Positions 21,282-44,906 of a stretch of 64,000 bases of DNA are shown in pieces. The DNA is taken from positions 19,540-83,539 of the forward strand of contig JBAZGE010000001.1 of NCBI GenBank assembly GCA_041653035.1, read 5' to 3'. The position numbers were made by a program, and so were the translations under genes. The notes under the pieces are model-generated. The model did no database searches. It had not been told where the DNA came from and was given only the letters and a program-made list of their open reading frames with translations. This stretch comes from Candidatus Omnitrophota bacterium (GTDB lineage Bacteria > Omnitrophota > Gorgyraeia > Gygaellales > Profunditerraquicolaceae). Positions within the stretch are counted from its first letter, which is position 1. Each line of letters starts with the position of its first letter.

Positions 21282-22283
21282 TTAATTATTCCTGTCCCGT
21301 TTATCCTTAAATAAATCCAGGAACCGGTCTTCATATTCCTTATACACATTCCACTTATCCAGCTCGGCCTTCAATTCCTGCGCCTTAGTGAGATCCTGCT
21401 TGACCTGCGAGAAAAGTTTCTCGATCCTCTCTTTGATTGAAAGCGGGAGTTTGGTAAGCTGGCTGAGCGACTTTTTTATTTTCTCTATTTCGTCTTCTCC
21501 GATCGGCCCCGGGGCAGGGCCCACCTTCAGATAATCGAGCAGACTGTTAATCTGATTCTCCATGACCTGCGCCTGTTCGGTAAGTTCGGAAAGGTCGACC
21601 TTCTTATTCAGGATCTTGCACAGTACCTCCAATACAGCCTGCGAGGCGCGGGGATTTTCAACCTGGATGGTATAGAGCGGGATCTCCCCCAGCAGGCACA
21701 GGCCGGGAAACCCCTCCCGTTTGGCGATACCCAGAAAAAGCCCGTTCATCCCGCTTATCTGCCCCTCGGATAACATACGCAGATCGTATTTTTTCATCTC
21801 GTTGTTGATCGCCGCCGCCGTAGCCGTATACCACACCCCGGGCGGCTGGGTATGCTCGATCGGCTGGGGCATGGCCGCGAAGCCGAAAATCGTTTTTACC
21901 TTGTAATGCCTGGCTACCGAAAGGATCCTCCGGGAATACTCCTCCGCGAGCGCCAGGTCCGGCTGGGCGTCGCTTACGAAAAATATCAGATCGTTCTTCC
22001 CCTCCTTATTTTTATAAAAATAAAACCTGCTGAACGGCGGCTCCGGGAGATTAAGGACACCCCCCCGCACCGTGCTTTCGGTCAGGTAAAAAAAATCCAT
22101 CGACGGGATCTCGGCGAATTCTTCCGCCTTCAGTTTATGCACCAGATATGTCGCCGCCTTAAAAGCCACCTCTCCCATGCCGGGCCAGGCGACTATCAAA
22201 TACGGATTTTTCAATTTCGGCCTTCTGCAGAATTTTATTCCTTCCATAACACTCTCCGGGTTAAACCCGAACTTCTCATGCAC
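21282..22283 (-). CDS. PAC2-family protein (proteasome-assembly-chaperone-2-like)
   Basis: 333 aa. N-terminal LIVAWPGMGEVA... and central GFAAMPQPIEH pattern resemble PAC2/COG2047 proteins. Coiled-coil C-terminus. Assignment by recall only. Confidence 0.5.
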   Translation of the reverse strand: MHEKFGFNPESVMEGIKFCRRPKLKNPYLIVAWPGMGEVAFKAATYLVHKLKAEEFAEIPSMDFFYLTESTVRGGVLNLPEPPFSRFYFYKNKEGKNDLIFFVSDAQPDLALAEEYSRRILSVARHYKVKTIFGFAAMPQPIEHTQPPGVWYTATAAAINNEMKKYDLRMLSEGQISGMNGLFLGIAKREGFPGLCLLGEIPLYTIQVENPRASQAVLEVLCKILNKKVDLSELTEQAQVMENQINSLLDYLKVGPAPGPIGEDEIEKIKKSLSQLTKLPLSIKERIEKLFSQVKQDLTKAQELKAELDKWNVYKEYEDRFLDLFKDKRDRNN

Positions 22284-23758: not shown

Positions 23759-26662
23759 TTAAAACGCTTGAGAGAGCCCGAACCACACATGCGGTTCTTC
23801 TTTCGGTTCGTTGATAGCCTGGGCAACATCCAGACGTACGACGGCTTTCTCAAGAAAACCGAGTATATTAAGATGCAACCGCAGCCCCAGGCCGGCGTCC
23901 TTTTTAAAATCGGCCTCGCGGTATGACGCATACCAGGCCCTTCCCGCGTCAAAAAAACCGACGGCCTGGATCTTATCAAGAGAAAATGATCTGCCCGGCG
24001 CGCGCCAGCGCATATCGGAGCGCAAGGGCAGGCGGTATTCGACGCCCCCCAGCAACATATGAGCTCCGGCAACCGTTTTACGGCTGTATCCCCGCAGGCC
24101 ATCCGGCCCGCCCATCTGGAAAAGGTCTTTATCCGACCCCTCGCCCCAGCCGAATTTAACACGGGCGGCTATAACATGCTGGAGCCGGGGAACGAGAAGA
24201 TGATACCTGTCTAATTCCAGACTCGTCCGCCAGAATGTTTCGTGCCCGCCTAAAAAATGCCCCGCAAACTCCTGTGTGGGAATAAATTTCCATCCGTACT
24301 GGGGATCGGGATACGGACCGTACCTCCCCAGTGAACCGGTTACCCCGATAATCGCCTCGTCTTTCCTGCGGTAATGCTGAGACTGAATAGATTCCTGCCC
24401 CTGCAGGCCGGCTGATTTCAATTCCTGATTCCGGATAAGATACCCGGTTACATGGTCGTTCAGGTCGAAAAGACCGTAACTTGCGGGCCAGAGTTCTTTA
24501 CGAACATACAATTTACCGCCGGTGAGATCGCGGCCGTCCTTGCTTGATTCATAATCAAAAATCTCAAACCCGGCCGCGGTCTGGGTATTAAAAAGATGCC
24601 CCAGCTCATACCCCAGCCGGGAATCCAGGGCTTTACCGTTAAAATCATAATCCGTGCTTAAGCGCACGACGGCATTATACGGGGCGGCCAGGGATGCCGC
24701 CGCTCCCGCGGAAGAACCGCCCACGTTCGGGCCGGCAATAAGATTATAGGAATCCCGCGAAGAGAAAAGCGGGATCTCATACGGAAAAAAGTAGAACGGG
24801 ACCGGCTTTAGATCGAATTTACGCGGCCAGTGATTATTCGTACGGTCTACATCCAAGACAATAGATCCATCAGGATCCACCTCCACCCGTGTTACTTTTC
24901 TGCCTGGATCCGTTCCGACAATCTTTATCTTCGATATCCCGTCCCAGGAATCTTCCGTGCCGCCGCCATCCGCATACACGATCCTGGTTTTCACCGGCAT
25001 GGTAATGGCTCCGCGATTTTCCAGGACAACCCTGCCGGGTTTTACCGAGGCGACCGCGAAATCAACTTTATTGTCTGTTTTGAGCCACTGCTGAAAAAAA
25101 GAAGCCAGATCCCGGCCGGATTCTTCATTGCATATTCCGATAAACTCGCTCACCCTGATATTTTTGAATCTGAACTCGGCAGTATAGCGCCGCACGATCT
25201 TTTCAAAAACATCCTCTCCGATCTCCGCGCGCAGCATTCCCAGCACAGCGGCGCCTTTGCCGTAGGCCAAAGCGAAAATCGATGACGGTTCCTGAAAACC
25301 GGAAAGATCGCCGACAACCGCGCCATCTAAGCCGTTTTTCGCCATGTATATATACCGCGCGATGGCGGAGTCCCGAAAGGCAAAATTCGGGATGAACCAC
25401 CGCACTGCCCCCGGGAGCGTTAAAACCCCGGCGCGGGGGCCGTATTTATTCTCGAGATATTGCAGCAGCCAGAAAGAATTCATCCCTTCATCAAGGAACA
25501 TCTCCCGGTATTCGTCGGAACCGATAATATTGTAAAACCACTGGTGCCCGGTTTCATGAGAGATCAGGAAATCAAAGTATCGGCTTAAAAACCCCGGCAG
25601 TGTATACGCCCTTGTGTCGATAAAAACCAGGCCCGACGACTGGCAGCCGCCGTATCCCAGGTAGCTGGGAACCAGGTTCAACTGCGGATAGGGATATCCG
25701 CCGAAACGCGCGGCATAGAAACGCATGATATCCCGCGCATTATGAGCGGCATCCCGCGCCGCTGTCTCATCCCCGGGCAGATAATAGGCGTTGATATGCA
25801 CATCCCCGTCTTCCAGCGTATACACCGAAAAATCATCCGAGATCCCCATGCCGAAATCCCGCACCGGCGATCCGGTTTCCATGGAAAATGTCTGGGTTCC
25901 GTCGGTATTTATATCTTTCTGCCGGAGCGTTCCCGAAGACACAACGGTCTGGCCGGCGGGGACTGTCAACATGACTTTATAGTACGCCGCCTCGCTGAAA
26001 AAAGGCTGGTGATAGATATAAAAAGGATAGTTGTGCCAGCCGTCGTCGTCGAACACGCTTAAGATCGGATACCAGCGTGTCAGGCTGACAATATTCTTAT
26101 GCCATCCGAATCTTCCGAAAGAATGCGGGATATCCACGACATAATCCATTTCCATCTCGACGGACTGCCCGGGAGGCACGGGAGCATTCAACCGCACCCT
26201 GAGCAAAGTACGATCCTTGCCGTCATCGGAAAAAACGAGCGCTTTCCCCGAGGAAGAAACAGCGTTAATTTTTAAATCGCCGCTTTGAAACCCTTCCGGG
26301 AAAGGATTGACCTTAAAATATCCGGCATATCGGTATAGAAAACGGATGTCTTCCTTGGAATAATACCGGTGCGGATAGATATGAAAAAACAGTTCTTTTA
26401 ATTCTTTATCGGAGTTATTGGTATACGCCACTTTCTGCCGGGCGGAAATCCGATGTTTCGCGATATCAAGCGTCGCATTGATCTCATATCGAGGCGGCTC
26501 AGCAGCGGATAACAGTTCACCGTACGCCGAAGGGCGGCACCCGCCGTTCCAATACGGCGGGGCGCTGACAGTTGACAGTAAAAAAGCGGAAAATAGTATT
26601 TGTACTATTCTATGAACCGTGAACAATGAACGGTGAACTATCTTAATGGACATGTCTCGCAT
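23759..26662 (-). CDS. M1-family (aminopeptidase N-like) zinc peptidase fused to a C-terminal Omp85/D15-type outer-membrane beta-barrel
   Basis: 967 aa. Signal-like N-terminus. HETGH...(18)...E gluzincin motif (ISHETGHQWFYN...FLDEGMNSFW). C-terminal ~300 aa rich in Gly/aromatic beta-strand patterns ending ...VWFGLSQAF (terminal Phe typical of OM beta-barrels). Confidence 0.65.
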   Translation of the reverse strand: MRDMSIKIVHRSLFTVHRIVQILFSAFLLSTVSAPPYWNGGCRPSAYGELLSAAEPPRYEINATLDIAKHRISARQKVAYTNNSDKELKELFFHIYPHRYYSKEDIRFLYRYAGYFKVNPFPEGFQSGDLKINAVSSSGKALVFSDDGKDRTLLRVRLNAPVPPGQSVEMEMDYVVDIPHSFGRFGWHKNIVSLTRWYPILSVFDDDGWHNYPFYIYHQPFFSEAAYYKVMLTVPAGQTVVSSGTLRQKDINTDGTQTFSMETGSPVRDFGMGISDDFSVYTLEDGDVHINAYYLPGDETAARDAAHNARDIMRFYAARFGGYPYPQLNLVPSYLGYGGCQSSGLVFIDTRAYTLPGFLSRYFDFLISHETGHQWFYNIIGSDEYREMFLDEGMNSFWLLQYLENKYGPRAGVLTLPGAVRWFIPNFAFRDSAIARYIYMAKNGLDGAVVGDLSGFQEPSSIFALAYGKGAAVLGMLRAEIGEDVFEKIVRRYTAEFRFKNIRVSEFIGICNEESGRDLASFFQQWLKTDNKVDFAVASVKPGRVVLENRGAITMPVKTRIVYADGGGTEDSWDGISKIKIVGTDPGRKVTRVEVDPDGSIVLDVDRTNNHWPRKFDLKPVPFYFFPYEIPLFSSRDSYNLIAGPNVGGSSAGAAASLAAPYNAVVRLSTDYDFNGKALDSRLGYELGHLFNTQTAAGFEIFDYESSKDGRDLTGGKLYVRKELWPASYGLFDLNDHVTGYLIRNQELKSAGLQGQESIQSQHYRRKDEAIIGVTGSLGRYGPYPDPQYGWKFIPTQEFAGHFLGGHETFWRTSLELDRYHLLVPRLQHVIAARVKFGWGEGSDKDLFQMGGPDGLRGYSRKTVAGAHMLLGGVEYRLPLRSDMRWRAPGRSFSLDKIQAVGFFDAGRAWYASYREADFKKDAGLGLRLHLNILGFLEKAVVRLDVAQAINEPKEEPHVWFGLSQAF

Positions 26663-27284: not shown

Positions 27285-29234
27285 TTATTTTAATTCCAGC
27301 GGATTATATCCGTAATACGCGAAAATCGTATACGCGGTGCCGGACACACAGCCGGTAGACTCCCCTTTCGGAGACCTCCATCCGTGGCCGGTATCAACAA
27401 AATCCGCGCTGGCATACGGCAGGCAACCTTCGCCTTGCCCGGAAGGAGAAGGACTGCAGATGATCATATTGCACAGATGTCCCAGATATTCCTCCGCTTG
27501 AATCCGATATTTCCCGGATTTCTCTAAATCCCCCGTCTGCCGGTAATACTCCGCCATTATCTTAAAAGAAGTTATCATCTGTGCCGTCCATTCCGTGGAA
27601 ATTACGCCGCCCCGCGCCAGGTGGCGCTGCGGAGCGAAATCAAACCCCTTTACGGCAACCGTTTTCCCGTCCGGCCGCGGATAAGAAACACTCACGCCGC
27701 ACTGCTCCGCGGCAAATTCCATGATCTTATCCGGATCCATGCCCGCTTCTTTAAGTTTCGCCGGACCGATGGCCGCGATAGACCAGGCATAGGTATCGGT
27801 AGCAATGGTGGAATCGCCTTTCCCGCGCGTGATCGGAACATCCAGCTTATCGTAACTATACAGCAGGAGCCACTTGAACGCCTTATCCCGCGCCGCGGCA
27901 TACCGGGGATTACCGGTCAAAACGAAAAGCATATTAAAAAACGCGTACGCATCCAGATTGTGTTCGGTACTGTACCATGAAAACGACGGGCCTCCGCGGA
28001 TCCCCCCGTCAGTATCCTGTGACTGCAGGGACATGACGGCACGCGCGAGTCCCTCTGCCAAAGGGATGTACCGGGGATCCTTGGTTTTGTGCGCGTATTG
28101 CACCGCGGCTATCCCCACCCACACATTGGGGCCGGAATGCACCAGATATTCAGCGGGATTCCCGTCATTGACATAATACGCGTTAAAAAAAAGGCCGTTT
28201 TCCCGCTTTGCCTTATCGGCGAAAAACTCCAGGATCCTGCGCGCGCGTTCCGTATCGCCCGCATACATATAAACCTGTGCCGCCAAAGCCTGATCATAGA
28301 TGAAGGCCTGGCCGGACATATCCGTATCCCCTTCGAAACTCATGACCAGCCCGGTGTGCGGATTCTGATGCACCGCGAGCCACTGGTACATCTTATGAAA
28401 ATTAGCCTCGGTCAATGCGGACTTTTCCCGGTCCAGACGCTCCAGTTCCCGGGCAACCGCCGTTTTCTGTTGCCCGGCGGAAAAAACCCGCTCTTGCAGC
28501 AATTCTTTCTCCCGGGACAACGCTGAGATCCGGGAATTATATTCTTCTATTCTTTTCCCGCTTTCGGATCTTTCCTGGCCCATAGCCGTCTCAAGCATCA
28601 TTTTTTCCTGTTCCAAAGACTTCATGCGCGACTCCAGATCCCCGATTTTAAGCTGTGCCCCTTCGGTCTCCCGGCTTATCACCTTTAACCGTTCCCGGGC
28701 GACATTCGATTCCTGGATAACTTTTATCAATTGCCCGACCAGCAGTCTATTCCCTTTTACCAGCCTGAAATTGAAATACCCGTTAATACCGAGCACCGCG
28801 CCCAGAACGATAACCACCGTCATTACCGCGGGCAGGAACATCTGTTTTGCCCGGGCGAAACGCAGGATACGATCTTTCCCTTCCTCATCAATAGACACGT
28901 ACCTCAGTCCGGCCAAACATCGTTCCTTGTCTTCCGCGATATCCTGGAACCAAACCACGCGCGCCCGGGCGCTTACCGCCGATCCGGCAATGAACGGGAT
29001 CTCAATTTCCAACGCAAGCATCACTTCTGCGTTTTTGATCTGCCGCGCCAAAAGCGGATCGGGTTTATTTATCCGAAGGCATATTCCGCCCTTCCCCACG
29101 TTATTGGTGAACCCCTGTTGCCAATCCGATAGAAATTCTTTTCCATCCAGGCTCACCAGCCGGAACTGCACGGGCAAAATCGTATCCATACGGATATAAC
29201 TACGCTGTTCCTGTATTTTGGGGTCCATACTCAT
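27285..29234 (-). CDS. PilZ-domain protein with TM segment, coiled coil and C-terminal (alpha/alpha)6-barrel-like (glycosidase/epimerase-like) domain
   Basis: N-terminal RSYIR (RxxxR) and NNVGKGG (D/NxSxxG-like) PilZ motifs. TM helix AVMTVVIVLGAVLGI. Heptad-rich 190-300. C-terminal YDQALAAQVY... pattern. Confidence 0.55.
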   Translation of the reverse strand: MSMDPKIQEQRSYIRMDTILPVQFRLVSLDGKEFLSDWQQGFTNNVGKGGICLRINKPDPLLARQIKNAEVMLALEIEIPFIAGSAVSARARVVWFQDIAEDKERCLAGLRYVSIDEEGKDRILRFARAKQMFLPAVMTVVIVLGAVLGINGYFNFRLVKGNRLLVGQLIKVIQESNVARERLKVISRETEGAQLKIGDLESRMKSLEQEKMMLETAMGQERSESGKRIEEYNSRISALSREKELLQERVFSAGQQKTAVARELERLDREKSALTEANFHKMYQWLAVHQNPHTGLVMSFEGDTDMSGQAFIYDQALAAQVYMYAGDTERARRILEFFADKAKRENGLFFNAYYVNDGNPAEYLVHSGPNVWVGIAAVQYAHKTKDPRYIPLAEGLARAVMSLQSQDTDGGIRGGPSFSWYSTEHNLDAYAFFNMLFVLTGNPRYAAARDKAFKWLLLYSYDKLDVPITRGKGDSTIATDTYAWSIAAIGPAKLKEAGMDPDKIMEFAAEQCGVSVSYPRPDGKTVAVKGFDFAPQRHLARGGVISTEWTAQMITSFKIMAEYYRQTGDLEKSGKYRIQAEEYLGHLCNMIICSPSPSGQGEGCLPYASADFVDTGHGWRSPKGESTGCVSGTAYTIFAYYGYNPLELK

Positions 29235-29296
29235 ATCGCCTTCCCTAATGCAGAAGGGGCGAACAGCCGTTCGCCCCTCCGAAGATCTTCAAACGC

Positions 29297-31675
29297 TTAC
29301 GGTTTCGTTTCCAGGACAATCCTCTGTTTTATTTTTTTCGCCAGATGTTCCAAAAAGGCCTTAAAATCGGCGTATTCCCCCTGACTGATAACTTTTCTCT
29401 TGGAATCCACTTTCTGGCGAAACTTAATTTTATTACCTTCCCGTTTATACTCAACCAATACCTTCAGCCACGGAGAATCTTCCTCTATGCCTTGCGGAAT
29501 ATATTTCGCGGAAAACCCTTCGGGGATTTCTATGACAAACGTGGTATCCTGCGTATTCAAAGCATTGAAATATATCGGATAGGTTCTCGCGTCCTTTGCC
29601 GCCAGCGACGTATCCATACTGGCCAGCTGGGGCATAATGCGCAGATTACCCGCGGCGGTAAAATACTCGGGGCCGCGAAAAGCATAGCGCAGCTCAACCG
29701 GCGTTCCCAGCGCTTCCATATTCTTGACCGTGTAATTTACCAACTGCGCGCCGATCGAGATATCCTGGATCCGCTCCTCGATCGCTTCCCGAACCAGCTG
29801 CGGCGGAGTATATAACAACCAGTAGCGCTCCGATTGGTCATAAAACCCATGGGTAACGATCGCCTTTTCCACGCCGATCCCTTCGTCGGCCCCCACGCGT
29901 ATACGTACGTCGTTCTGCAAACGGTTATGTTCCGGAGGATAAAACGGTGTGCGCATAATCGTATACCCGTCCTCCTTGACCAGGAATATGTTTCTGTCCT
30001 GATCGCCGGGAGGAAGATCCCCGAAGGAACACGTCTCTGCCGTAGGATCGAGAAAAACAACCGAATCCTTGGCCTGTACCGCCGCGATACAATGGTTAAA
30101 AAGTACCGCCGGAAAATCATTGTTCAGATTAAAATAATCTGTGGTGGCGATAAGCAGCGGCCAGGCGGAAAAACCCGCTTCTTTCAGCAGGGTAACCAGA
30201 AGGATCGCCTGGTCTTTACAATCGCCGTATTTATTCCTGAAGATGTCCTCCGCTTTATGCGGCTCATACCCGGCATCCCCGTATTCCACCGCCACATAAC
30301 GGATATTCTGCGCACAAAAGTTGTAGAGAACAGCCATCTTCGCCGCATCCTCTTTAATCCCGTGTGTTAATTCCGATACTTTTTGCCTGATCGCGTCATC
30401 CGCCTTTATCTTATCTTTTGCCAGCGGCCACCACCACTCATATATCTCCTGCCAACTCTGGAACGAAGACACCAGGATAGTGGGGTTAATCTCCACATAC
30501 GGAGGCATGTTGGATTCCGGCAGGATCTGCGGCACATCCTTGAAATCCCACCGGTAAATACGAGCCTCTCCTTTTTCTTCAATAACCGGCTCAAGCCGGG
30601 CATTGAAACTATTATAAGGCTCATTCAGTATCTTCAGATTCACCTTTTTATCCTTCGGAACACTCAGGCTAAAGGTTGCGTTGATCACGGGTTCGGACGA
30701 TTGAACCGGATACCCGGTTATAAAATCCTTCTTGTTTATAAGCTGATTGCGGTGTATCTTCAGTTTATATTCTATGCTTGCTCCCTCGGTAATTTCCGGG
30801 AAGGAGATAATGAACACGCGGGCATTGCTGTAAAGTGGAAAATTAAGATATTTGGATACGTCGCGGATATGCCGGCTGCCTACTTCAACCACGCTGCCGT
30901 CAGGTTTTATGGTGCGGGCGTACTCTAAATCCACCTTTTCGTCGGTTGAATCGTAATCGACGTGGATCTCGGAAAATTTCTCTTTACCCCGCTCGTTCAG
31001 GATCTTGACCAGATAGTGCAGGGCGGTCACTTCCGTATTAGAAGGGGTCACTTCCGTTTTTTCATCGGCATACAAAATAAAAGCGCCTGCCTGCGGATAC
31101 GCTTCCGCTTTCGGCGCACCGGCAAGCATCTCAGAGATACGCGGATCCACGTCTTTTATGTTCGAGCGGCTGTTCTTTTTTTCGATAACCCCGATCCTCT
31201 CCTGCGCCGCCGCCCGAAAATCAGGCGATTGTACCTTCTGGTACGCCTCCAATGCTTTGTCAAAAAGATTCAGCCGTTCACTGGTCAATCCGTAATAAAA
31301 CAAGTATTCGTCATCAAGGGACGGCTCTTTCCTGAAAATCTCAAGGGCATCGGCATAATTGCCGATTTTAAATTGCGCGATCGCCGACAGTTTTTTAGCC
31401 TGTGGAGCAGGAACATGCTTAAACTCCTCTATAGCCTCTTGGAACCTGCCGTTGGTGTAATATAGAAAACCCAGCTCAAAACGCAGGGTCCGGTCATCCT
31501 TATTCCGGGCGATCAAATCCCGGTATTTCCCGACCGCTTCTTCATACATAACGCCGGACTGTTTCGAATAACCGCGCGCGCGGCTCAGCTCCATATTTTC
31601 CGACGAGCAGGATGTCATAATGAGGCATAATGCGGCCCAGCTTATTATCGATCTCCCCCGGTAATTCTTATTCAT
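29297..31675 (-). CDS. Lipoprotein with N-terminal TPR repeats, DUF3857-like region and transglutaminase-like cysteine-protease core
   Basis: 792 aa. Lipobox (LIMTSCSS). TPR helices. YGDCKDQAILLVTLLKEAGF matches the transglutaminase-like Cys core. Confidence 0.65.
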   Translation of the reverse strand: MNKNYRGRSIISWAALCLIMTSCSSENMELSRARGYSKQSGVMYEEAVGKYRDLIARNKDDRTLRFELGFLYYTNGRFQEAIEEFKHVPAPQAKKLSAIAQFKIGNYADALEIFRKEPSLDDEYLFYYGLTSERLNLFDKALEAYQKVQSPDFRAAAQERIGVIEKKNSRSNIKDVDPRISEMLAGAPKAEAYPQAGAFILYADEKTEVTPSNTEVTALHYLVKILNERGKEKFSEIHVDYDSTDEKVDLEYARTIKPDGSVVEVGSRHIRDVSKYLNFPLYSNARVFIISFPEITEGASIEYKLKIHRNQLINKKDFITGYPVQSSEPVINATFSLSVPKDKKVNLKILNEPYNSFNARLEPVIEEKGEARIYRWDFKDVPQILPESNMPPYVEINPTILVSSFQSWQEIYEWWWPLAKDKIKADDAIRQKVSELTHGIKEDAAKMAVLYNFCAQNIRYVAVEYGDAGYEPHKAEDIFRNKYGDCKDQAILLVTLLKEAGFSAWPLLIATTDYFNLNNDFPAVLFNHCIAAVQAKDSVVFLDPTAETCSFGDLPPGDQDRNIFLVKEDGYTIMRTPFYPPEHNRLQNDVRIRVGADEGIGVEKAIVTHGFYDQSERYWLLYTPPQLVREAIEERIQDISIGAQLVNYTVKNMEALGTPVELRYAFRGPEYFTAAGNLRIMPQLASMDTSLAAKDARTYPIYFNALNTQDTTFVIEIPEGFSAKYIPQGIEEDSPWLKVLVEYKREGNKIKFRQKVDSKRKVISQGEYADFKAFLEHLAKKIKQRIVLETKP

Positions 31676-31687
31676 ACCGATCCTCCG

Positions 31688-32512
31688 TTAGGTAATCTCC
31701 AGGTTCACTATATTATCTATCCTAAACGTCCGCGCCTCATTCCGCACAGTGCAGAGACCGAGAAGATACGCATGTCTCCCGTCTTTTTTTATCTGGCGGG
31801 GAAGGACGCTCCGTTCCGAGACCCGGGCATCCCGGTTGGACAAGTATTTTATTTTCACTCGCACGCCCAGGCTTATCGCTTCCTGCAATTCCGCTATTCG
31901 CTGCGTATGGATATCCCGCAGATAATCCGAATCAAGGCCAAAAAGATGTACCATATTCTCAAACCCGCATATCCCTTTTTTTTTCAATTCCGCCGTCAGA
32001 GAATCAAAAACCTCCACCGTCAGGGCCGCATCGGAAAGGGCGCGGTGTTCCTGCCGCTCTTCCATCCCCAGGGTCTCCGCCACAAACCAAAGAGCATGGC
32101 GCTCAAGAGCAGGCAAAAGCTTTTTTGCCATTTTTAATATGTCGATCACAACCAAGCCGTGTAAGGGAAAATCCGTCTCCGCTAATCTAACCTCATTATA
32201 CAAAAAAGCCATGTCGAAGCCGGCGTTGTAAGAACACAGGCACGAATCGCCGACAAACTTTAAAAATTCCGGCAAGACCGCTTCCATGCGCGGCGCCTGC
32301 GCCACCATATCCGGACTGATACGATTAACCCGGAAAGCGGCTTCGGATATCGGACGCTGGGGATTAATCAATGACTGGAATTGAGCGACCTTCCGGTTGT
32401 TAACCAGTTTAACCGCCGCTATTTCCACGACACGATCGCCGAATTCCGGATTCAAACCGGTAGTTTCCGTATCAAATATGGTAAATACTATATCGTCTAT
32501 GTTTTTAGCCAT
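31688..32512 (-). CDS. DEDDh 3'-5' exonuclease (DnaQ/RNase T-like) with C-terminal WYL-like domain
   Basis: Exo I FDTETTG, Exo II YNAGFDMAFL, Exo III HRALSDAAL. C-terminal RSVLPRQIKKDGRHAYLLGLCTVRNEARTFRIDNI fits the WYL-domain consensus. Confidence 0.7.
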   Translation of the reverse strand: MAKNIDDIVFTIFDTETTGLNPEFGDRVVEIAAVKLVNNRKVAQFQSLINPQRPISEAAFRVNRISPDMVAQAPRMEAVLPEFLKFVGDSCLCSYNAGFDMAFLYNEVRLAETDFPLHGLVVIDILKMAKKLLPALERHALWFVAETLGMEERQEHRALSDAALTVEVFDSLTAELKKKGICGFENMVHLFGLDSDYLRDIHTQRIAELQEAISLGVRVKIKYLSNRDARVSERSVLPRQIKKDGRHAYLLGLCTVRNEARTFRIDNIVNLEIT

Positions 32513-33428
32513 GCCTTAAGCCGCCTCTGTTTTTTCGCTGCACCAGATAAGCCGGAACCGCATATGCAGGATAATAGGAACGCTTAACTTTCTTGAGGTT
32601 CTCCAACCCTGAATCATCCATGATATTGATATAGGCATACTCTTTAAACTCGGCGCAGAAATTCCTGAAAATAAACTGGCTCAAGCCTTTGACGGCGCGG
32701 TCGGCAATCTCATACAAAACACAGAACGTGTCTTCGCACACCGGGAAACCAAAGGTAAACGCCTTTATCCGGCCGTCAATCTTCACTACTCTGCCCGTAC
32801 AATGCAAGCGATCGTAATCACCCAGCAGAATTTTCAGGGAGTTCAAACCATCACGCATCATCCCGGTGTACACCGGGTCTTTATTCCCGATACCGCGCTC
32901 GTGCATCCATCGGTTATACAACGCGATACACGCCTCCCCGGATTCCGGAAAGAACGATGCGTATTCACCATGGTAATGTTTCACGAAATAATTGACCCCG
33001 GACCGCTTGGATTTAAATCGATCCCCCCGCAACCCCGCCATATCCGTCTGTTTACAAAGGTAGTCGCAGGATTTCAAAACCGAATCGTATCCCCACGCTT
33101 TATACCGCGCGATATCCCCTTCTTCCACGTTTTCTATGCGGGATAAAGACGCGTCCCGGTTATGTTCCGCCATCACCGCAAAAGCTTTCTCTATCACCAG
33201 AGGGCTTTTCTCTATGCCCAACGGGGGAAGGTACATGAAACAACTTATCCCGTCTTTAAAAAAAACGCACAATTCCCCGTCAATGATCATCCAGAATATC
33301 TCGAACAAACCCTTCCATATATATATATTCGGGAAGGCATAGACGGAAAGCCGGTGTTTTTCCAAACCCAGGAAGCGATCAAAAACACGTCTGTCTTGCA
33401 TGTGGAGAATACGGGATTTGCCGGTCAC
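32505..33428 (-). CDS. DUF2156-like protein (homolog of the MprF C-terminal aminoacyl-tRNA-dependent transferase domain)
   Basis: 307 aa. C-terminal GLENLKKVKRSYYPAYAVPAY resembles the GLxxFKxKFxP...Y ending of DUF2156/LPG-synthase C-domain proteins. 8-nt overlap with the exonuclease gene, 4-nt overlap with ykgJ. Recall-based. Confidence 0.5.
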   Translation of the reverse strand: MTGKSRILHMQDRRVFDRFLGLEKHRLSVYAFPNIYIWKGLFEIFWMIIDGELCVFFKDGISCFMYLPPLGIEKSPLVIEKAFAVMAEHNRDASLSRIENVEEGDIARYKAWGYDSVLKSCDYLCKQTDMAGLRGDRFKSKRSGVNYFVKHYHGEYASFFPESGEACIALYNRWMHERGIGNKDPVYTGMMRDGLNSLKILLGDYDRLHCTGRVVKIDGRIKAFTFGFPVCEDTFCVLYEIADRAVKGLSQFIFRNFCAEFKEYAYINIMDDSGLENLKKVKRSYYPAYAVPAYLVQRKNRGGLRHG

Positions 33429-33937
33429 CGGAACAGCTCCCTCAGATCCAGCACATCTTTATATGTCTGTATAATATGTGGATTTCGTTTCAACAGGCCG
33501 CACTGCGGTTCTTTGTTCAAGAGATCTTCGAGATAGGCGATATAATTCTCCCATCCCCCGCCTGCCCCCTTACCGGAAACACGCACCATCTCTTCGGCAA
33601 AAGGACAGTTCGCGTCAACCGCAAGAAAAATTCTTCCATCCCTGCGGTTAATAACAAACGGGTAAAGCAGGCATTCAAACGGCCGGACCGCGTAGAGAAC
33701 GCAGGTATTATCTTCGATGCGCAAAAATGGGCAGAAAAACCCCTCCCCCCCCGGATCCCGGATAAGCCGTATACGTTTATCGGCTGTAACACAGGAATCG
33801 GACTGCGCGTATCCCCGAATATTCAGGATATCTTCATCGGTCAATCCGGGAGACCAGGCGGAATCCGGCCGAAGGAACCGGCAGCATCCCCGGCATTGAA
33901 GGCAGTAGTCACTTGTAATAAATTGTTTTAAGGACAT
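33425..33937 (-). CDS. YkgJ/UPF0153-family Cys-rich (Fe-S or Zn) protein
   Basis: 170 aa. CLQCRGCC (CxxCxxCC) N-terminal motif, FFCPFL, CVLYAVRPFECLLYPF. Confidence 0.65.
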   Translation of the reverse strand: MSLKQFITSDYCLQCRGCCRFLRPDSAWSPGLTDEDILNIRGYAQSDSCVTADKRIRLIRDPGGEGFFCPFLRIEDNTCVLYAVRPFECLLYPFVINRRDGRIFLAVDANCPFAEEMVRVSGKGAGGGWENYIAYLEDLLNKEPQCGLLKRNPHIIQTYKDVLDLRELFR

Positions 33938-33972
33938 AACCGAGACGCCTGTAAGGACAGCACCTGCGCAAG

Positions 33973-34293
33973 CTATTTTACGATACTTCCGGTCTTTATT
34001 TCCCTGTCCGGGCTGAGTATGGAGATACCGGTTTCATCCGAAGCCGCCAGAAGCATACCCTGGCTTTCCACTCCGCGCAAAACCGCGGGCTCCAGATTAT
34101 CGATCACCACGATCAAACGGCCGGGCAAGTCTTCCTTCTTATAAGAACCGCGGATACCGGCGACAATCTGTTTGGTCTTATCTGCGATCTCAATGGTCAG
34201 GACGTATAACCTGTCGGCATTCGGATGATCCTGCGCTTCTTTAATTCTGGCAATTTTCAACTCTAATTTTTTAAACTCCTCTAAAGTAACCAT
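33973..34293 (-). CDS. tRNA-binding domain protein (CsaA/Trbp111-like, MetRS C-terminal-like)
   Basis: 106 aa. KIARIKEAQDHPNADRLYVLTIEIADKTKQIVAGI...VVIDNLEPAVLRGVESQGMLLA matches the CsaA/EMAP tRNA-binding fold. Confidence 0.7.
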   Translation of the reverse strand: MVTLEEFKKLELKIARIKEAQDHPNADRLYVLTIEIADKTKQIVAGIRGSYKKEDLPGRLIVVIDNLEPAVLRGVESQGMLLAASDETGISILSPDREIKTGSIVK

Positions 34294-38884: not shown

Positions 38885-39343
38885 TTACTGCCCCCCCAGC
38901 TTGCCCAGGATACCGAGCGTAAAGGCCATCACGAACAAAGCCACGGTCTCGGCCATGCCCAGGACCACAATATAATTCCCGAATCCTTTATTGGTCTCTC
39001 CCATGGCGTCGCAGGCGCTGGCGGCGCATTTGCCCTGCCAGTACGCGCTTAAACCTATAGCGAGCCCGGCGAAAGCCCCGACTCCCCAAAGATACTGTCC
39101 TTTGGCGGCAAGTTCATACATCTTATTCATCACGATCATCCCGTAAATGGTCTGCGTAAGCGGCGCGCCCACAAAAGCAATCAGCATGAACGATGCCGTT
39201 TTATTCTGCGCATAATTTTTTTTCCACGCGCCGATAGCAGCCATGCCGGCCGTACCTGCGCCTGCGGCAGAACCACAGGCAGACAAAGCAAGAACCAGCG
39301 CGAATCCCAAATCCTTGAACTGCACAAGCACATTTCCTTCCAT
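38885..39343 (-). CDS. ntpK: V-type ATP synthase subunit K (proteolipid)
   Basis: 152 aa, four hydrophobic helices, Gly/Ala-rich (GAGTAGMAAIGA...), conserved Glu in the last helix (MAETVALF). Confidence 0.8.
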   Translation of the reverse strand: MEGNVLVQFKDLGFALVLALSACGSAAGAGTAGMAAIGAWKKNYAQNKTASFMLIAFVGAPLTQTIYGMIVMNKMYELAAKGQYLWGVGAFAGLAIGLSAYWQGKCAASACDAMGETNKGFGNYIVVLGMAETVALFVMAFTLGILGKLGGQ

Positions 39344-39356
39344 AGTTTCCTCCCGG

Positions 39357-41120
39357 TTATTCTTTCAACGGATCATATTCCATTCCGCTCCAGGCCACAT
39401 TTGCATGACTGGAAAATTCCAAAACGTTAAGCCTGATGCCGTGCACCAGCACCGACATCGGCCCCAAGACAACATTCAACCCGTGTCCGATCAGCGCGAT
39501 CAAAACACCCGCAGACAAAGCCCCGAACCCGCCGCCTAACCCTGCCGCCATGGTATTGGTGGTTTCGGCAATCGCCACGCCCGCCAGCCCGACCGCAAAA
39601 AGACGGACATACGATACCACATCGGTAAAATTATTCATCAGGCTCAAAGCGGCCGTACCGAGCCCTTCGCCTATTGTTTTCAGTATATTACGCTGCGGAT
39701 TGGTAAATAAAATAACCAGCACGACGCCCGTCAGTATCAGCCATTTTCCCCCTGCGGGAAAAGATTCCCCCAGAATCAAGGTGCGCGCCAGGAAAAACGC
39801 GGTCCAGAGGACACAGATCCAGCCGGCATCCGCCAACGCCGCCGGCGACGGCAGTTTAATCAAGGCGCGCCAGGAATGGGCGAGGGAAAGATGCAAAGCT
39901 CCCAGAAAAAAACAGAATGTTTGCATAAACTTAGCGTCGTTTAATTGCGGGACTAACGGCTGCCATCCCCGTTTCAACAACCAGTCTTGGCCAAAAAAAG
40001 TCCCGGTCAACAATCCCCAGGCAATCGCGCAGGAACTCAATAAATACAACAGGTAAAATATTTTTTTCGCGGAAACATCTTTCTTTAATTTATTCTGCAG
40101 CCATACCGTGAACAATATGTATATGAGGCCATACCCGGCATCGCCGATCAGAATACCGAAGAAAATACCGAGGAAAATCAAAAAAAGCGCGCTCACGTCA
40201 AGTTCCCGGTACCCGGGAATAATCCCCAAAAGAGTAAACACCGGTTTTATCAAACCGACCCAGCGGGGACTACGGATCAAAGTAGGCACGGTGTCTTCTT
40301 CCGATGGCTGCCGAAGAGAAACCGCCCATTTTTTTTCCTGCGCTTCCTTCAACAGCGCGTCAACCGCATCAAAGGGAACATACCCGCACAAATAGGCAAT
40401 GCCCCCTGATTCTCCCATGCCTTTTAAAGCCCGATGAAACTCCAGTTCTTTTTCAATACTCCCCCGGTGCCGTTCAATATCCTTGAAATACCCTGCCTGC
40501 CGGCGTATTTCTTCCCGCAGAGATACTTCTACCCGCCCATCCTCCTCCAGCTTCCGGCGCATAGCGGTCAAAGACATTTTAGGCGCGGCAATCTCCTTAT
40601 ACGGCACCTCTGATTTTTCCCGTGAAACAACAAAACACCGGACAATGCCGTTGCGCACGGTTATTTTCCTGACGATCAGGGACGCATCCAAAACGTTGAT
40701 CCCGGCTTCCGGTATTTCAAAAAAACGGACATATATATTTCTTTCGGACAAGGCGCGGATCTGTTCCTGATCAACATCGCCCCAGGCTTCCCATTCAGCG
40801 ATCCGGGCTTCCAACAACCGGGCATATTCCTGGAGATGATCCAGCCGTTTTTCCATATCGATGATATGGCGGATTACCGCCTTCCAATCCACCGCGGACT
40901 GCGCGGGCTGTTCAAAATCTTTTTCCCCGCAAAAACGGGAAAGGATGTCCAAAGCGGCGGCCGCCAGCACACTGTCTTCCTGAAGCGCCGCGATATCCGC
41001 GCCCTGAGGAACCTGCTGATGCTCCACGTGCACCACTCCCAGCCTGCGCAGATGAATGAGCGTATCCTGCGCATCCCGAGACCGGCACAGGCACCAGACT
41101 TTTTTCATAGGGACGATCAT
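39357..41120 (-). CDS. ntpI: V-type ATP synthase subunit I (a-subunit)
   Basis: 587 aa. Soluble N-terminal coiled-coil half and multi-TM C-terminal half. Position in the operon. Confidence 0.8.
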   Translation of the reverse strand: MIVPMKKVWCLCRSRDAQDTLIHLRRLGVVHVEHQQVPQGADIAALQEDSVLAAAALDILSRFCGEKDFEQPAQSAVDWKAVIRHIIDMEKRLDHLQEYARLLEARIAEWEAWGDVDQEQIRALSERNIYVRFFEIPEAGINVLDASLIVRKITVRNGIVRCFVVSREKSEVPYKEIAAPKMSLTAMRRKLEEDGRVEVSLREEIRRQAGYFKDIERHRGSIEKELEFHRALKGMGESGGIAYLCGYVPFDAVDALLKEAQEKKWAVSLRQPSEEDTVPTLIRSPRWVGLIKPVFTLLGIIPGYRELDVSALFLIFLGIFFGILIGDAGYGLIYILFTVWLQNKLKKDVSAKKIFYLLYLLSSCAIAWGLLTGTFFGQDWLLKRGWQPLVPQLNDAKFMQTFCFFLGALHLSLAHSWRALIKLPSPAALADAGWICVLWTAFFLARTLILGESFPAGGKWLILTGVVLVILFTNPQRNILKTIGEGLGTAALSLMNNFTDVVSYVRLFAVGLAGVAIAETTNTMAAGLGGGFGALSAGVLIALIGHGLNVVLGPMSVLVHGIRLNVLEFSSHANVAWSGMEYDPLKE

Positions 41121-41734
41121 CCTGCCACCTCAAACGCCAGAAGTTCTTCTATTTTCCGTTTGGCGATTTTACTTCTTCCCACGGCATTAGCCATCTGATC
41201 GCCAATGTAGATCTTGATCCTGCGGACCGCCTCCTCCGCCTCGGGGATCTTTACCTTTTCAAACAGATTAACCCTCTGCGTGGTAATACGCAGTTCATGC
41301 CGGAGTATCTCTATCGCCCGCCGCATGATCCCTATCTCTTCACGCAAAGAAACCAGTTCCCGCAAAAGCCCGATCGCCGCATCTACCCAGGGAGGAACCA
41401 GGAATAAATCATATTCCGCCTCGGCAAAATCCGCGCGCTCAAAAACAGGAAGATCGACCCCCGCCACATTCCTGGCCCCGGACACAATCTTAAGAGGGGC
41501 AATCCACGCGGACAACGATATCCCCGAATCCGCAAGAAGCCCAATCCAGGAAAGAACGGCCGACCTTCGGGAGTTTTCCGTCCGCAGCTTCTCTTCAAAA
41601 ATGCCGTTCCAGCGCAGGATCTCCATCTGCAGCTGCTGTTTCTTAAGCTGTAACGTCGGCAGGTACCTCCGGAATTGACGGAGATCATCCCGCTGCCGCT
41701 TCAATTCACCTTTTGTTAATTTTATCTTAACCAT
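41117..41734 (-). CDS. ntpD: V-type ATP synthase subunit D
   Basis: 205 aa. N-terminal KLTKGELKRQRDDLRQFRRYLPTLQLKKQQLQ pattern typical of subunit D. 4-nt overlap with ntpI. Confidence 0.75.
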   Translation of the reverse strand: MVKIKLTKGELKRQRDDLRQFRRYLPTLQLKKQQLQMEILRWNGIFEEKLRTENSRRSAVLSWIGLLADSGISLSAWIAPLKIVSGARNVAGVDLPVFERADFAEAEYDLFLVPPWVDAAIGLLRELVSLREEIGIMRRAIEILRHELRITTQRVNLFEKVKIPEAEEAVRRIKIYIGDQMANAVGRSKIAKRKIEELLAFEVAG

Positions 41735-41744
41735 AAACCAAGTT

Positions 41745-41838
41745 CCGTAATACGTAATTCGTAAACGGTAAATCGTAATGAAAATGGATTCCCCTGTATA
41801 GAACTCTCCTTTTACGATTTACGCATTACGAAATTACG
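41745..41838. repeat. Imperfect inverted repeat built from CGTAA(T/A)/TTACG pentamer units, intergenic inside the V-ATPase operon
   Basis: Left arm CCGTAATACGTAATTCGTAAACGGTAAATCGTAA, right arm TTTTACGATTTACGCATTACGAAATTACGG, ~30-nt spacer. Confidence 0.4.
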
Positions 41839-41848
41839 GCATAAAAGT

Positions 41849-43147
41849 TTACGCCGAATGCTGCCAGTATTGCTCGATAAGCGATTTTTTAATACCGGTC
41901 TCCTCGGGGGTGAAACATTCTCCCAAAATCTGCCATCCTCTATCCAATGCTTTTTCGAGAGAGATATTGACCTTTAAAGACATCATTTCGCTTTCAAAAA
42001 TCATTCCGTATTTGAGCAGTTTTTTATCCCACGCGCTCATCTGAAACCCCATGGCCTGTTTTTCCAGCGTTTCCCGGTAACCGGCAAAAAGCTGTATCAT
42101 GGTATCCATGATCGTACGGTGGTCGGAACGGGTCTTCCCGTTCACCTGCTGTTTCAGGCGGCTCAGAGATCCGAACGGTTCGATCACGCTGTTCTTTAGA
42201 TAAAACTGCCCCTCGGTTATGTATCCGGTATTATCCGGAACGGGATGCGTCACATCATCGCCGGGCATAGTGGTCACCGCCAGTATGGTGATGGAGCCGG
42301 CACTATCAAAATCAACCGCTTTCTCATAGCGGGCGGCGAGTTGACTGTAGAGATCACCGGGATACCCGCGGTTCGACGGAACCTGTTCCATGGTAATGGC
42401 GATCTCCTTTAACGCGTCGGCGAAATTGGTCATGTCGGACAGCAAGACCAGCACCCGCTTGCCGTTCAGGGCGAAATGCTCGGCAACCGCCAGGCTTATA
42501 TCCGGGACCAGCAGGCATTCTACCGTCGGATCCGAAGCGGTGTGGATAAAAAAGATCGAACGGGAAAGAGCGCCTTTTTCTTCCAGCGTATCCCGGAAGA
42601 AAAGATAATCGTCGTATTTCAACCCCATGCCGCCGAGTATGATGATATCCACTTCCGCCTGGACCGCGATACGGGCCAGGACATCATTATAGGGTTCGCC
42701 GGCTATGGAAAAAATCGGGAGCTTTTGGGATTCGACCAGAGAATTAAACACATCGATCATGGGAATGCCCGTCCGGATCATTTTATTCGGGATGATCCTC
42801 TTCACCGGGTTTACCGGCGGGCCGCCGATATCCACCAGGTTATCCCCCAGCACCGGGCCTTTGTCCAAAGGATGACCGCTGCCGTTGAAAATCCTGCCCA
42901 TAAGGTCTTCGCCGCTGGCAACGCGCATGGGATGACCTAGAAAACGGACCCGGTCCCCGGTAGAAACCCCCTTGCTCCCGGCGAATATCTGCAGGGATAC
43001 GCGTTTTCCGTCAAGACGGATGACCTGGGCGAGGGAAACGCCCCGTGAAGTTGTGATCTCGGCTATCTCATTATATCCGATACCTTCCGCTTCCACGGTG
43101 ATTACGTCTCCGGCAATCTGAACGATACTTGTATAAATTTTTTGCAT
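41849..43147 (-). CDS. ntpB: V-type ATP synthase subunit B
   Basis: 432 aa. A/B-family nucleotide-binding fold with degenerate P-loop ([12 protein letters not shown]), as in non-catalytic B subunits. Confidence 0.9.
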
Positions 43148-43154
43148 GGTTTTG

Positions 43155-44894
43155 TTATTGTTGTTGGTGCCGTTTCTGCTCTACGAGCAAAGATAGCTCC
43201 TGTTCGATCTGCTCAAATTCGGGAGATCTGAACGGAGAAGAATTCCACCCTTTGAACAACTGGCGCAGCTGCTGAAAAAAGTGAAGCGCTTTTTCCTTGT
43301 TCTCAAAATCAAATTCCGCGTCAAGGATATCGTGAATGAACGAAAAAATGTATTTCTGCCGGTCCGCCGGGCAGGCCTCGTCGACCGCATCAAACGCGTT
43401 TTGCTGAAGATACACGGAATCAAAAAACTCTCCCTTAAGATATTCAACGTAATCGGGCAGAGATGTCCCTTCTTCACCGATAACCTTCATCATCTGGGAC
43501 ACCTCGTGGCTTTTACGCAGAATATCCTGCCCTTTTTCACGATGGAGCCGGCCGATTATGCTGGGATACTTGCTCCAACTGATCAAAGGATCGATCGCCG
43601 GATAACGCCGGGCGTCGGAACGCTCACGGGAAAGCCCGTGAAACGCGCCTACTACTTTTAACGTGGCCTGGGTTACCGGTTCCTCAAAATTCCCTCCTGC
43701 CGGGCTGATGGTCCCGCCGATAGTAACCGAACCGATGGACCCGTCATACAGCCTGACCACTCCCGCGCGCTCATAAAAAGAGGCTATCCGAGATTCCAGG
43801 TACGCCGGGAAGGCTTCTTCCCCGGGGATCTCCTCCAGGCGGCCGGACATCTCCCGCATAGCCTGCGCCCACCGGGAAGTGGAATCTGCAAGCAGCAAAA
43901 CATGCAGTCCCATCTGCCGGTAATATTCGGCGATGGTCACCGCGGTATACACGCTCGATTCCCGCGCGGCAACAGGCATGGAACTGGTATTACAGATTAT
44001 CACCGTGCGGTCGCTCAACGGCTTCTGTGTCCGCGGATCGACCAGTTCCGGAAATGTCTTCAAGGTCTCGACAACTTCTCCCGCGCGCTCGCCGCAGGCA
44101 GCGATAATGACGACATCCGCCTCTGCGTGCCGGCTGACCAGCTGCTGCAGCACGGTCTTTCCGGCGCCAAAAGGCCCGGGAATACAATACGTCCCCCCGC
44201 GGGCAACCGGAAAAAGCGAATCGATCAAACGCATCTTGGTTACCAGCGGCTCTTCGGGTTTCAACCGTTCAGCATACGCCTTAATAGCCAGCTTTACCGG
44301 CCAGCGCTGCTTCAGGCACACATTCTCTTCTTTTCCCGCCGTATCCCGCAGCCGGGCAATCGGCTGTTTCAGATTATACCGGCCCAGGTTCGCAATACTG
44401 AGTACCTCTGCCGTGCCCTTCAGAAAGAACGGCGCCATGATAAAATGCCTGAATATTTTTTCCGGCACAAACCCCAGGCGGGTACCGGCTTTCACCATAT
44501 CGCCTTTTTTAACCAGAGGCGTAAATTCCCACTCGGCAGACTCGGCAAGAGGGGCGGGATACACTCCCCGTTTTAAGAAAAACCCGTACTCCTCGGCAAG
44601 ATGCGGCAGAGGATTCTGCAGTCCATCAAAGATCTGCCCCAGAAGCCCGGGGCCGAGTTCGGCCGAAAGCAATTCTCCCGTGAATTCCACCGTGTCCCCG
44701 ACCCGCAGTCCGCCCGTATTTTCATATACCTGAGTCTCCGCCTCATTGTTCCTGACGCGGATAACCTCGGCTTTGAGCGCCTCCTGCCCGCTGTGTATAT
44801 ACGCCACTTCGTTCTGTATCACCGTTGAATCGATCCGCGCGGTCACCATATTACCGCTGACTTTTATAACCTTCCCTTTTCTCTGAGACTGCAT
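43155..44894 (-). CDS. ntpA: V-type ATP synthase catalytic subunit A
   Basis: 579 aa. [12 protein letters not shown] Walker A. A-subunit-specific non-homologous region. Confidence 0.9.
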
Positions 44895-44906
44895 ATTTTT
44901 TCCCGG

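Follow-up and report, generated by a model that had tools for sequence, protein, structure and literature searches.

WYL domains have been studied almost exclusively as the switches of transcription factors that sense single-stranded DNA (ssDNA) in DNA-damage or anti-phage responses, and the Pif1-WYL helicases are the sole enzyme fusion of this domain characterised so far. The part played by WYL on a nuclease is the question raised by a gene located in a 64,000-nucleotide stretch (hereafter, the window) of contig JBAZGE010000001.1 from a Candidatus Omnitrophota bacterium, whose 274-amino-acid product combines an N-terminal DnaQ-family exonuclease domain of the DEDDh type with a C-terminal WYL domain. 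An initial annotation, made from the sequence, interpreted this protein as a possible effector activated by nucleic-acid signals, in line with the frequent occurrence of WYL domains in defence or DNA-damage contexts. The interpretation favoured here, to which we give about an even chance of being correct, is that the protein is a housekeeping DNA 3'-5' exonuclease on which WYL acts in cis as an ssDNA-binding targeting module.

The open reading frame begins with an ATG codon, and its product belongs to the DnaQ/DEDDh superfamily and bears a true WYL domain. As proposed in the initial annotation, the Exo I (DxE), Exo II (NxxxFD) and Exo III (Hx4D) motifs are intact, including the histidine of the DEDDh signature, and the five catalytic residues (D14, E16, D100, H156 and D161) are all present and invariant in an alignment of 46 homologues; a metal-dependent 3'-5' exonuclease activity is predicted for the protein. 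Among the solved sequences, the nearest to the exonuclease domain is the PolC-type exonuclease from T. maritima (2p1j, E=9.4e-27), with further matches to PolC (E=6e-20) and to epsilon (~1e-16). The AlphaFold model presents the RNase H-like alpha/beta fold of DnaQ, and superimposes on E. coli epsilon (2gui, 1j53) at 1.8 Å, with a template modelling score (TMt) of 0.88, and on the DnaQ domain from S. thermophilus at 2.1-2.2 Å. PolC and DnaQ are also the best NCBIfam matches: the protein passes the cutoff of the dnaq subfamily-domain model TIGR00573 (101.9 vs 71.5 bits) and fails all the epsilon and PolC equivalog cutoffs, reaching, in the case of the epsilon equivalogs (TIGR01406/NF004316), 113.5 vs 222.7 and 107.1 vs 196 bits. 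RNase T appears as a structural neighbour in the fold matches, with an identity of just 21-23%, and is not among the sequence matches at E<=0.01.

The C-terminal assignment made in the initial annotation is confirmed by a profile search, in which the region, whose quoted sequence is present verbatim, scores 48.3 bits with Pfam WYL (gathering cutoff, 21.8) and covers positions 3-69 of the 70 in the profile. The WYL models from PADLOC match the same region (E=5e-12 and 2e-11), and a profile built from it matches the WYL domains of PafBC (6sj9, E=2e-10) and DdPif1 (8bnv, E=2.3e-9); when the full-length sequence is used as the query, Pif1 helicases are the only solved proteins in which the WYL part is matched. 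The expected Sm-like fold was also found by structure prediction. Residues 183-274 modelled alone, with a predicted local distance difference test score (pLDDT) of 85.4, form one helix and five strands, and the top 29 matches of this model in a Foldseek search of the PDB, among them PafBC, CapW, BrxR and DriD, are all WYL domains, with a root-mean-square deviation (rmsd) of 0.9-2.6 Å (mostly <=2.2 Å) over ~70 columns. The elements of the domain comprise a helix (196-215) and strands at 219-224, 231-244, 247-254, 259-264 and 268-273, and its core positions Y223, R234, P238, L250, C254, R261 and F263 are invariant among the 46 homologues. The W-Y-L motif invoked in the initial annotation, located on strand beta3, holds only in part: Y249 is conserved in at least 90% of the sequences and L250 in all of them, whereas the literal W is not conserved, as the motif reads A-Y-L here and presents S, N, K or I at the W position in relatives. 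Neither a helix-turn-helix (HTH) nor a WCX domain was found by Pfam, and the protein ends two residues past the WYL match, at strand beta5.

The full-length AlphaFold2 model, based on the 46-homologue alignment, shows two well-defined domains with a defined mutual orientation (pLDDT 90.2; predicted template modelling score, pTM, 0.88), joined by two helices (184-191 and 196-215; pLDDT 87-96), the second of which doubles as the helix that opens the Sm-like fold of WYL. Within this connector, L190 and F191 are (near-)invariant, and the element to which they belong persists as F-G-V in orthologues devoid of WYL. The possibility that this linker sequence, xxLFGL, represents an internal beta-clamp-binding motif like the QTSMAF of epsilon was considered and set aside, since it forms part of an ordered helix (184-191, pLDDT ~90), is packed between the domains in the model and is not preceded by Q.

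A putative ligand face can be traced by comparison with DdPif1, where WYL contacts ssDNA through R464, R491, R495, R498 and R501 (PMC9964779). Four of these five arginines are kept, as R464, R491, R495 and R498 align with R234, R257, R261 and R264, respectively, while R501 corresponds to N267 (Asn or Gly in this family). R234 and R261 are invariant in the 46-homologue alignment, and S225, R257 and R264 are conserved in at least 90% of it. Equivalents of the Ser/Arg pocket of CapW (S144/R164/R168/R184) are also conserved, as S225, R234 and R261/R264, while the CapW RWHVR motif, including the arginines that flank the WYL motif, is absent from the 274-amino-acid protein. The residues S225, R234, R257, R261 and R264 are thus predicted to constitute a face for binding single-stranded nucleic acid, and the domain looks able, from its sequence, to bind ssDNA or another nucleic acid. 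The broader notion of a nuclease linked through WYL to a nucleic acid, in all likelihood ssDNA, is a reasonable one.

Insight into the function of this coupling comes from orthologues that have dispensed with WYL. They were met in two more divergent Omnitrophota loci. In one of them (L007:7998-8618, + strand), a 206-amino-acid exonuclease that stops right where the N-terminal helix of WYL would start occupies the slot that follows the genes for tRNA_bind, CxxCxxCC and LPG_synthase_C (DUF2156) proteins and precedes PabB, as in L084. A similar 206-amino-acid protein is encoded in L008 (871-1491, + strand), where the contig is short and the flanking genes are missing. The WYL-less subfamily amounts to 617 matches at E<=1e-20 (those listed are proteins P0277-P0396), and the best 120 of them share 72-100% identity with the L007 protein, itself the top match, and nearly all have 206 amino acids. 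In these orthologues, WYL is replaced by a C-terminus with the sequence Q-x-S-L-F-COOH, in which, among 113 aligned sequences, Q is present in 112, S in 101, L in 110 and F in all 113, with the neighbouring positions 201 and 203 being variable. This motif is confined to the WYL-less orthologues and is not found in the WYL-bearing protein. The tail matches the consensus for binding the bacterial beta-sliding clamp, QL[S/D]LF or, more generally, QxxLF, where positions 1, 4 and 5 are critical and of which the C-terminal QLSLF of PolC is an example (PMC12309361), and we infer that it may bind the clamp.

When the exonuclease domain alone was used for a neighbour-joining tree with 100 bootstrap replicates, the WYL-less proteins formed a single clade in 94-98 replicates and were nested within the WYL-bearing radiation in 95-97; monophyly of all the exonuclease-WYL proteins against generic DnaQ-like outgroups is recovered in just 10-15. 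The simplest history would be one in which WYL was lost and a clamp-binding-type tail was gained. Since a nested sister lineage swaps WYL for a passive, beta-clamp-binding-like tail, the role of WYL would be that of targeting or anchoring the enzyme in replication or repair, rather than that of a defence switch, and the substrate would be DNA rather than RNA.

Combining these elements, the protein would function in Omnitrophota as a two-metal DEDDh 3'-5' exonuclease akin to the PolC/epsilon proofreaders, and its N-terminal domain would take nucleotides off a free 3'-OH end, with D14, E16, D100 and D161 holding the metals and H156 serving as the general base. The two-helix connector would keep WYL in a fixed orientation, and WYL would grip the sugar-phosphate backbone of adjacent ssDNA via S225, R234, R257, R261 and R264, recruiting or anchoring the nuclease on replication or repair intermediates that contain ssDNA, such as gaps, flaps or primer termini. 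Binding of the ligand by WYL may also boost the activity. In one Omnitrophota lineage, the C-terminal beta-clamp-binding peptide would do this job instead.

The architecture itself is not new. In 2014, Makarova et al. had already included a '3'->5' exoRNase' in their list of enzymes joined to WYL (PMC4012209), and the fusion has been uncharacterised since: literature searches found no paper that characterises a DEDDh-WYL protein or a WYL protein from Omnitrophota. The interest lies in its conservation across the phylum and in the exchange between WYL and the clamp-type tail. A search of 5.8 billion proteins gave 2,597 matches, and the best 120 of them all have ~273 amino acids, contain RNase_T and WYL and show 53-94% identity, every named one being from Candidatus Omnitrophota; in all, this architecture is common to more than 120 clusters with 54-94% identity. 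When the profile of the C-terminal region was compared with 1.84 billion cluster representatives, 2,499 matches were obtained at E<=1e-3, and fusion to an exonuclease was the commonest architecture among the best 150, where this domain was detected in 40 representatives by local phmmer and in 39 by Pfam; other partners include HTH_PafC (31), WCX (30) and HNH (8). A genome scan with the single protein gave no match, and in an alignment-based scan the informative loci were L001-L005, L007 and L008, the rest being mostly generic DnaQ exonucleases, as the patterns derived from the Exo I motif; no WYL domain was found in the betaproteobacterial loci L025 and L027, with matches up to residue ~233.

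Divergent members of the exonuclease-WYL family are present in Candidatus Fischerbacteria, Elusimicrobiota and the Patescibacteria group. One of the divergent proteins adjoins the genes for the ribosomal proteins L21/L27 (locus L086), another adjoins cell-division genes (locus L090) and another is encoded near MutS2, DnaG and a RecN-like gene (locus L091). In an Elusimicrobiota locus (L088:2166-3737, + strand), lexA (LexA_DNA_bind + Peptidase_S24) is located 135 nucleotides upstream of the exonuclease-WYL gene and on the same strand, a single case that represents a possible SOS link. The DNA-damage context suggested in the initial annotation consequently survives in a modest form, borne by this locus and by the neighbours of the L091 gene.

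Within Omnitrophota, the order tRNA_bind, CxxCxxCC, LPG_synthase_C and exonuclease, all on the same strand, is maintained in L001-L005, L007 and L081-L085, with partner proteins of ~106-132, ~165-186 and ~300 amino acids, respectively, and the exonuclease-WYL protein from L081 is 81% identical to that of the window. The features of the window locus are collected in Table 1. The stop codon of the DUF2156 gene overlaps the exonuclease start (ATGGCTAA at 32505-32512, read directly from the sequence), and the downstream gene begins 12 nucleotides past the exonuclease stop, after a GGAGG site; promoter-like and terminator-like sites are no commoner than in shuffled sequence. The exonuclease is translationally coupled within a tightly packed housekeeping operon. 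The downstream side varies: some genomes have Hyp genes or PabB inserted there, ahead of the same TPR-DUF3857-transglutaminase, PilZ and HhH-GPD genes. Elsewhere, the window is devoted to core metabolism and translation, with genes for CarAB, PyrD/PyrF, PurH, EF-G, MnmE, a Mur ligase, SOD and a V-type ATPase. Because the synteny is invariant, the operon tight and the window housekeeping, and because searches of phage, plasmid and viral-structure collections did not retrieve the architecture, we regard the gene as part of the chromosomal core of Omnitrophota, inherited vertically.

Table 1. Features of the exonuclease-WYL gene and of its syntenic partners (positions are those of the window).
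Feature	Position	Strand	Basis
Complete gene, 274-amino-acid DnaQ-family (DEDDh) exonuclease with C-terminal WYL	31688..32512	-	Open reading frame list, Pfam RNase_T + WYL
DEDDh 3'-5' exonuclease domain, residues 12-169	32006..32479	-	Pfam RNase_T (PF00929), E=4.9e-35
Exo I motif FDTETTGL, residues 13-20 (D14, E16)	32453..32476	-	Translation
Exo II motif YNAGFD, residues 95-100 (D100)	32213..32230	-	Translation
Exo III motif HRALSD, residues 156-161 (H156, D161), DEDDh signature	32030..32047	-	Translation
Two-helix connector, residues 183-215, with conserved LFG(L/I) element	31868..31966	-	AlphaFold model
WYL domain (five-stranded Sm-like barrel), residues 206-272, not followed by WCX	31697..31897	-	Pfam WYL (PF13280), E=1.1e-12
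Arginine patch RNEARTFR (R257, R261, R264), beta4-beta5 region	31721..31744	-	Alignment with DdPif1
LPG_synthase_C (DUF2156), standalone, upstream syntenic partner	32505..33428	-	Pfam
CxxCxxCC (YkgJ-like) metal-binding protein, syntenic partner	33425..33937	-	Pfam, synteny
tRNA_bind (Trbp111/CsaA-like) protein, syntenic partner	33973..34293	-	Pfam, synteny

The upstream trio formed by tRNA_bind, CxxCxxCC and the soluble, standalone DUF2156 protein (32505-34293, - strand) may constitute an aminoacyl-tRNA-dependent transferase module, and persists as far as the divergent L007 lineage. In L089 (5808-7828, + strand), tRNA_bind also precedes the exonuclease-WYL gene, with YjbQ and LDcluster4 (LOG-like) genes between them instead of CxxCxxCC and DUF2156; because the intervening genes differ, the linkage between tRNA_bind and the exonuclease outlasts that with the other two.

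Some observations weigh against the proposal of an ssDNA-targeted housekeeping exonuclease. The 113 tail sequences are 72-86% identical, so their conservation is partly due to shared ancestry, the more divergent WYL-less protein encoded in L008 ends in HEFVF, and the clamp-binding assignment of QxSLF is a putative one, made by motif match only. In addition, the adjacency of lexA is known from one case only, the operon partners tRNA_bind and the aminoacyl-tRNA-transferase-like DUF2156 hint at RNA or tRNA biology, and, by analogy with transcription factors, where WYL acts allosterically, pure anchoring may be too simple a role. This last point leads to an explanation that is plausible but that we consider less likely, and which retains the part of the initial annotation unrelated to defence: that of a ligand-gated nuclease in which WYL would be an allosteric sensor in the style of DriD, PafBC or CapW and would keep the exonuclease inactive until ssDNA, or another nucleic-acid or nucleotide ligand, binds, in which case the enzyme would be a damage-induced nuclease for repair or degradation. 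The allosteric change driven by ssDNA in all the structurally characterised WYL regulators, the rigid coupling predicted between the two domains, which could pass on a signal, the conservation of the ligand face and the lexA gene next to the Elusimicrobiota homologue are all consistent with gating. However, the WCX domain and the HTH/linker helices that mediate allostery in the regulators are absent from a protein that ends at strand beta5, the closest solved enzyme-linked WYL domains, those of Pif1 helicases, are accessory substrate binders, the operon is of a housekeeping type and looks constitutive, and the replacement of WYL by a simple tethering peptide fits localisation better. The hint at RNA biology corresponds to a still less probable alternative, according to which the enzyme would trim the 3' ends of tRNAs or small RNAs like RNase T or oligoribonuclease, with WYL as an Hfq/Sm-like binder of single-stranded RNA and a functional tie to the co-transcribed tRNA_bind and aminoacyl-tRNA-transferase-like genes. 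It draws on the invariant operon with tRNA_bind and standalone LPG_synthase_C, on the persistence of tRNA_bind close by in L089 despite other intervening genes, on the Sm fold that WYL shares with RNA binders (PafBC was at first proposed to bind RNA), on the exoRNase label given to the WYL-fused domain by Makarova et al. (PMC4012209), on the Rv2179c-like exoribonuclease model, which is also matched by 5 of the best 150 WYL representatives (RNase_T is present in 39 of these 150), and on the presence of RNase T among the structural neighbours. Nevertheless, the sequence is much nearer to the PolC/epsilon proofreaders than to RNase T, the clamp to which the tail of the WYL-less orthologues would bind is a DNA-bound platform, and outside Omnitrophota the tRNA genes are unlinked, with lexA or primase/MutS2 appearing instead.

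The explanation closest to the initial annotation, an anti-phage or CRISPR-associated effector in which foreign nucleic acid bound to WYL would activate the nuclease against the nucleic acid of the invader or the host, is the one to which we attach the lowest probability, a very small one. It is true that WYL regulators are common in defence islands and that the individual domains match the Cas-associated DEDDh and WYL models of PADLOC and the candidate system PDC-S48, but these matches are single-domain only, and the four immediate neighbours have no convincing match (best E ~0.01). The syntenic position is fixed across the phylum at 54-94% identity, the contexts in the other phyla examined are also chromosomal and unrelated to defence, and a repeat scan of the 64-kb window, housekeeping throughout, detected no CRISPR array and no mobile-element or terminal repeats. 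Location in a defence island, which the initial annotation had proposed to look for among homologues, was therefore rejected on the basis of PADLOC (applied to the gene and its four neighbours), the repeat scans, a Pfam scan of 27 window proteins and the neighbourhoods of 15 loci from several phyla, all of which are housekeeping. A mobile-element origin was likewise rejected, given that 50,697 phage and 72,556 plasmid records, searched by tblastn, yielded just exonuclease-domain or PolC matches and not the fusion, and that a Foldseek search of a viral structure library matched the exonuclease half only (TMq at most 0.59). The protein is not part of any recognised defence system, and the idea of a nucleic-acid-activated effector of the defence type is not supported, in view of the fixed synteny, the housekeeping operon and window and the lack of CRISPR, of defence partners and of phage or plasmid occurrence.

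Other features of the window deserve mention in their own right. Essentially all of its ~55 credible genes are on the - strand, and each 2-kb bin from 1 to 64000 shows a negative GC skew; this co-orientation is extreme and presumably follows replication. At 23759-26662 (- strand), a 967-amino-acid protein presents an unusual fusion, kept in L081, of Peptidase_M1 (residues 307-526) with a C-terminal Omp85 barrel of the outer membrane (residues 760-967). The region 27285-31675 (- strand) encodes a 792-amino-acid protein with TPR, DUF3857 and a transglutaminase core beside a 649-amino-acid protein with a weak N-terminal match to PilZ and a long coiled coil, and the two genes are adjacent wherever the flank reaches (L003, L004, L081, L082/L083 and L084). 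A bacterial V-type (A/V) ATPase operon extends over 38885-45446 (- strand), where subunits c, I and D and DUF2764 were recognised by Pfam and by homology to L081, and where the open reading frames of 432 and 579 amino acids presumably encode subunits B and A. Finally, a PAC2-family protein resembling proteasome-assembly chaperones (E=1.7e-39) is encoded at 21282-22283 (- strand), adjoining an M20 peptidase gene.

The exonuclease-WYL gene belongs to the core of an entire phylum of poorly understood, ultra-small bacteria. The replacement of WYL by a clamp-type tail amounts to a natural 'domain-swap experiment', and provides a testable hypothesis for the role of WYL domains attached to enzymes. 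It also serves as a warning that fusions between WYL and nucleases should not be taken as defence genes by default. A broader and rather doubtful extension is that Omnitrophota, and perhaps related uncultured phyla, use a trans-acting exonuclease for replisome proofreading or 3'-end editing that is delivered by an ssDNA-sensing WYL domain and not by binding to the polymerase or the clamp, WYL and the clamp peptide being interchangeable in evolution as targeting devices. Only in that case would this be the first WYL 'sensor' domain to form an integral part of the core machinery of DNA replication or repair.

Regarding known systems, the protein falls outside the HTH-WYL-WCX regulators and is not an epsilon equivalog. 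From its architecture and arginines, it can be placed with the enzyme-appended accessory WYL domains of the Pif1-WYL type. The Pif1-WYL helicases, such as TePif1 from Thermotoga elfii and DdPif1 from Deferribacter (8BNV), also bear a single C-terminal WYL on a nucleic-acid enzyme, without HTH or WCX, and of the WYL domains with a solved structure theirs are among the nearest in sequence, with contact arginines that align with those of the window protein. The full activity of TePif1 requires WYL, which serves it as an accessory module for binding ssDNA. The differences lie in the catalytic partner, which is an SF1 helicase in Pif1-WYL and a DEDDh exonuclease here, and in R501, replaced here by Asn or Gly. 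The wHTH-WYL-WCX regulators PafBC, DriD, CapW and BrxR, for which the ligand is ssDNA arising from DNA damage, share the WYL fold (rmsd 0.9-2.1 Å) and the conserved basic ligand face, whereas the Omnitrophota protein has no HTH, WCX or dimerisation helices and lacks the RWHVR motif of CapW and BrxR (A-Y-L here), its output being enzymatic instead of DNA binding or transcription.

On the exonuclease side, the proofreading domains of epsilon and PolC have the fold and the catalytic motifs in common with the protein and are its best matches in sequence and structure; however, the C-terminal segment by which epsilon binds alpha (PHP) and its internal clamp motif are absent, and a folded WYL domain is found instead. 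E. coli Exonuclease I (SbcB) also consists of a DnaQ-fold exonuclease followed by a small beta-barrel (SH3-like) domain, and Foldseek aligns all 274 query columns with 4js4_B, at a TMq of 0.55 and an rmsd of 6.7 Å. The extra domains of Exonuclease I help to enclose ssDNA and confer processivity. The non-canonical mycobacterial DnaQ, in turn, likewise carries a C-terminal accessory targeting domain on a DnaQ exonuclease, being a trans-acting second proofreader in which an essential accessory BRCT domain is followed by a C-terminal Q[Y/L]ALF (PMC11348249), a QxxLF-type clamp motif that resembles the Q-x-S-L-F of the WYL-less Omnitrophota orthologues. In mycobacteria, BRCT, a protein-interaction module, and the clamp motif coexist in one protein, whereas in Omnitrophota WYL and the motif are mutually exclusive.

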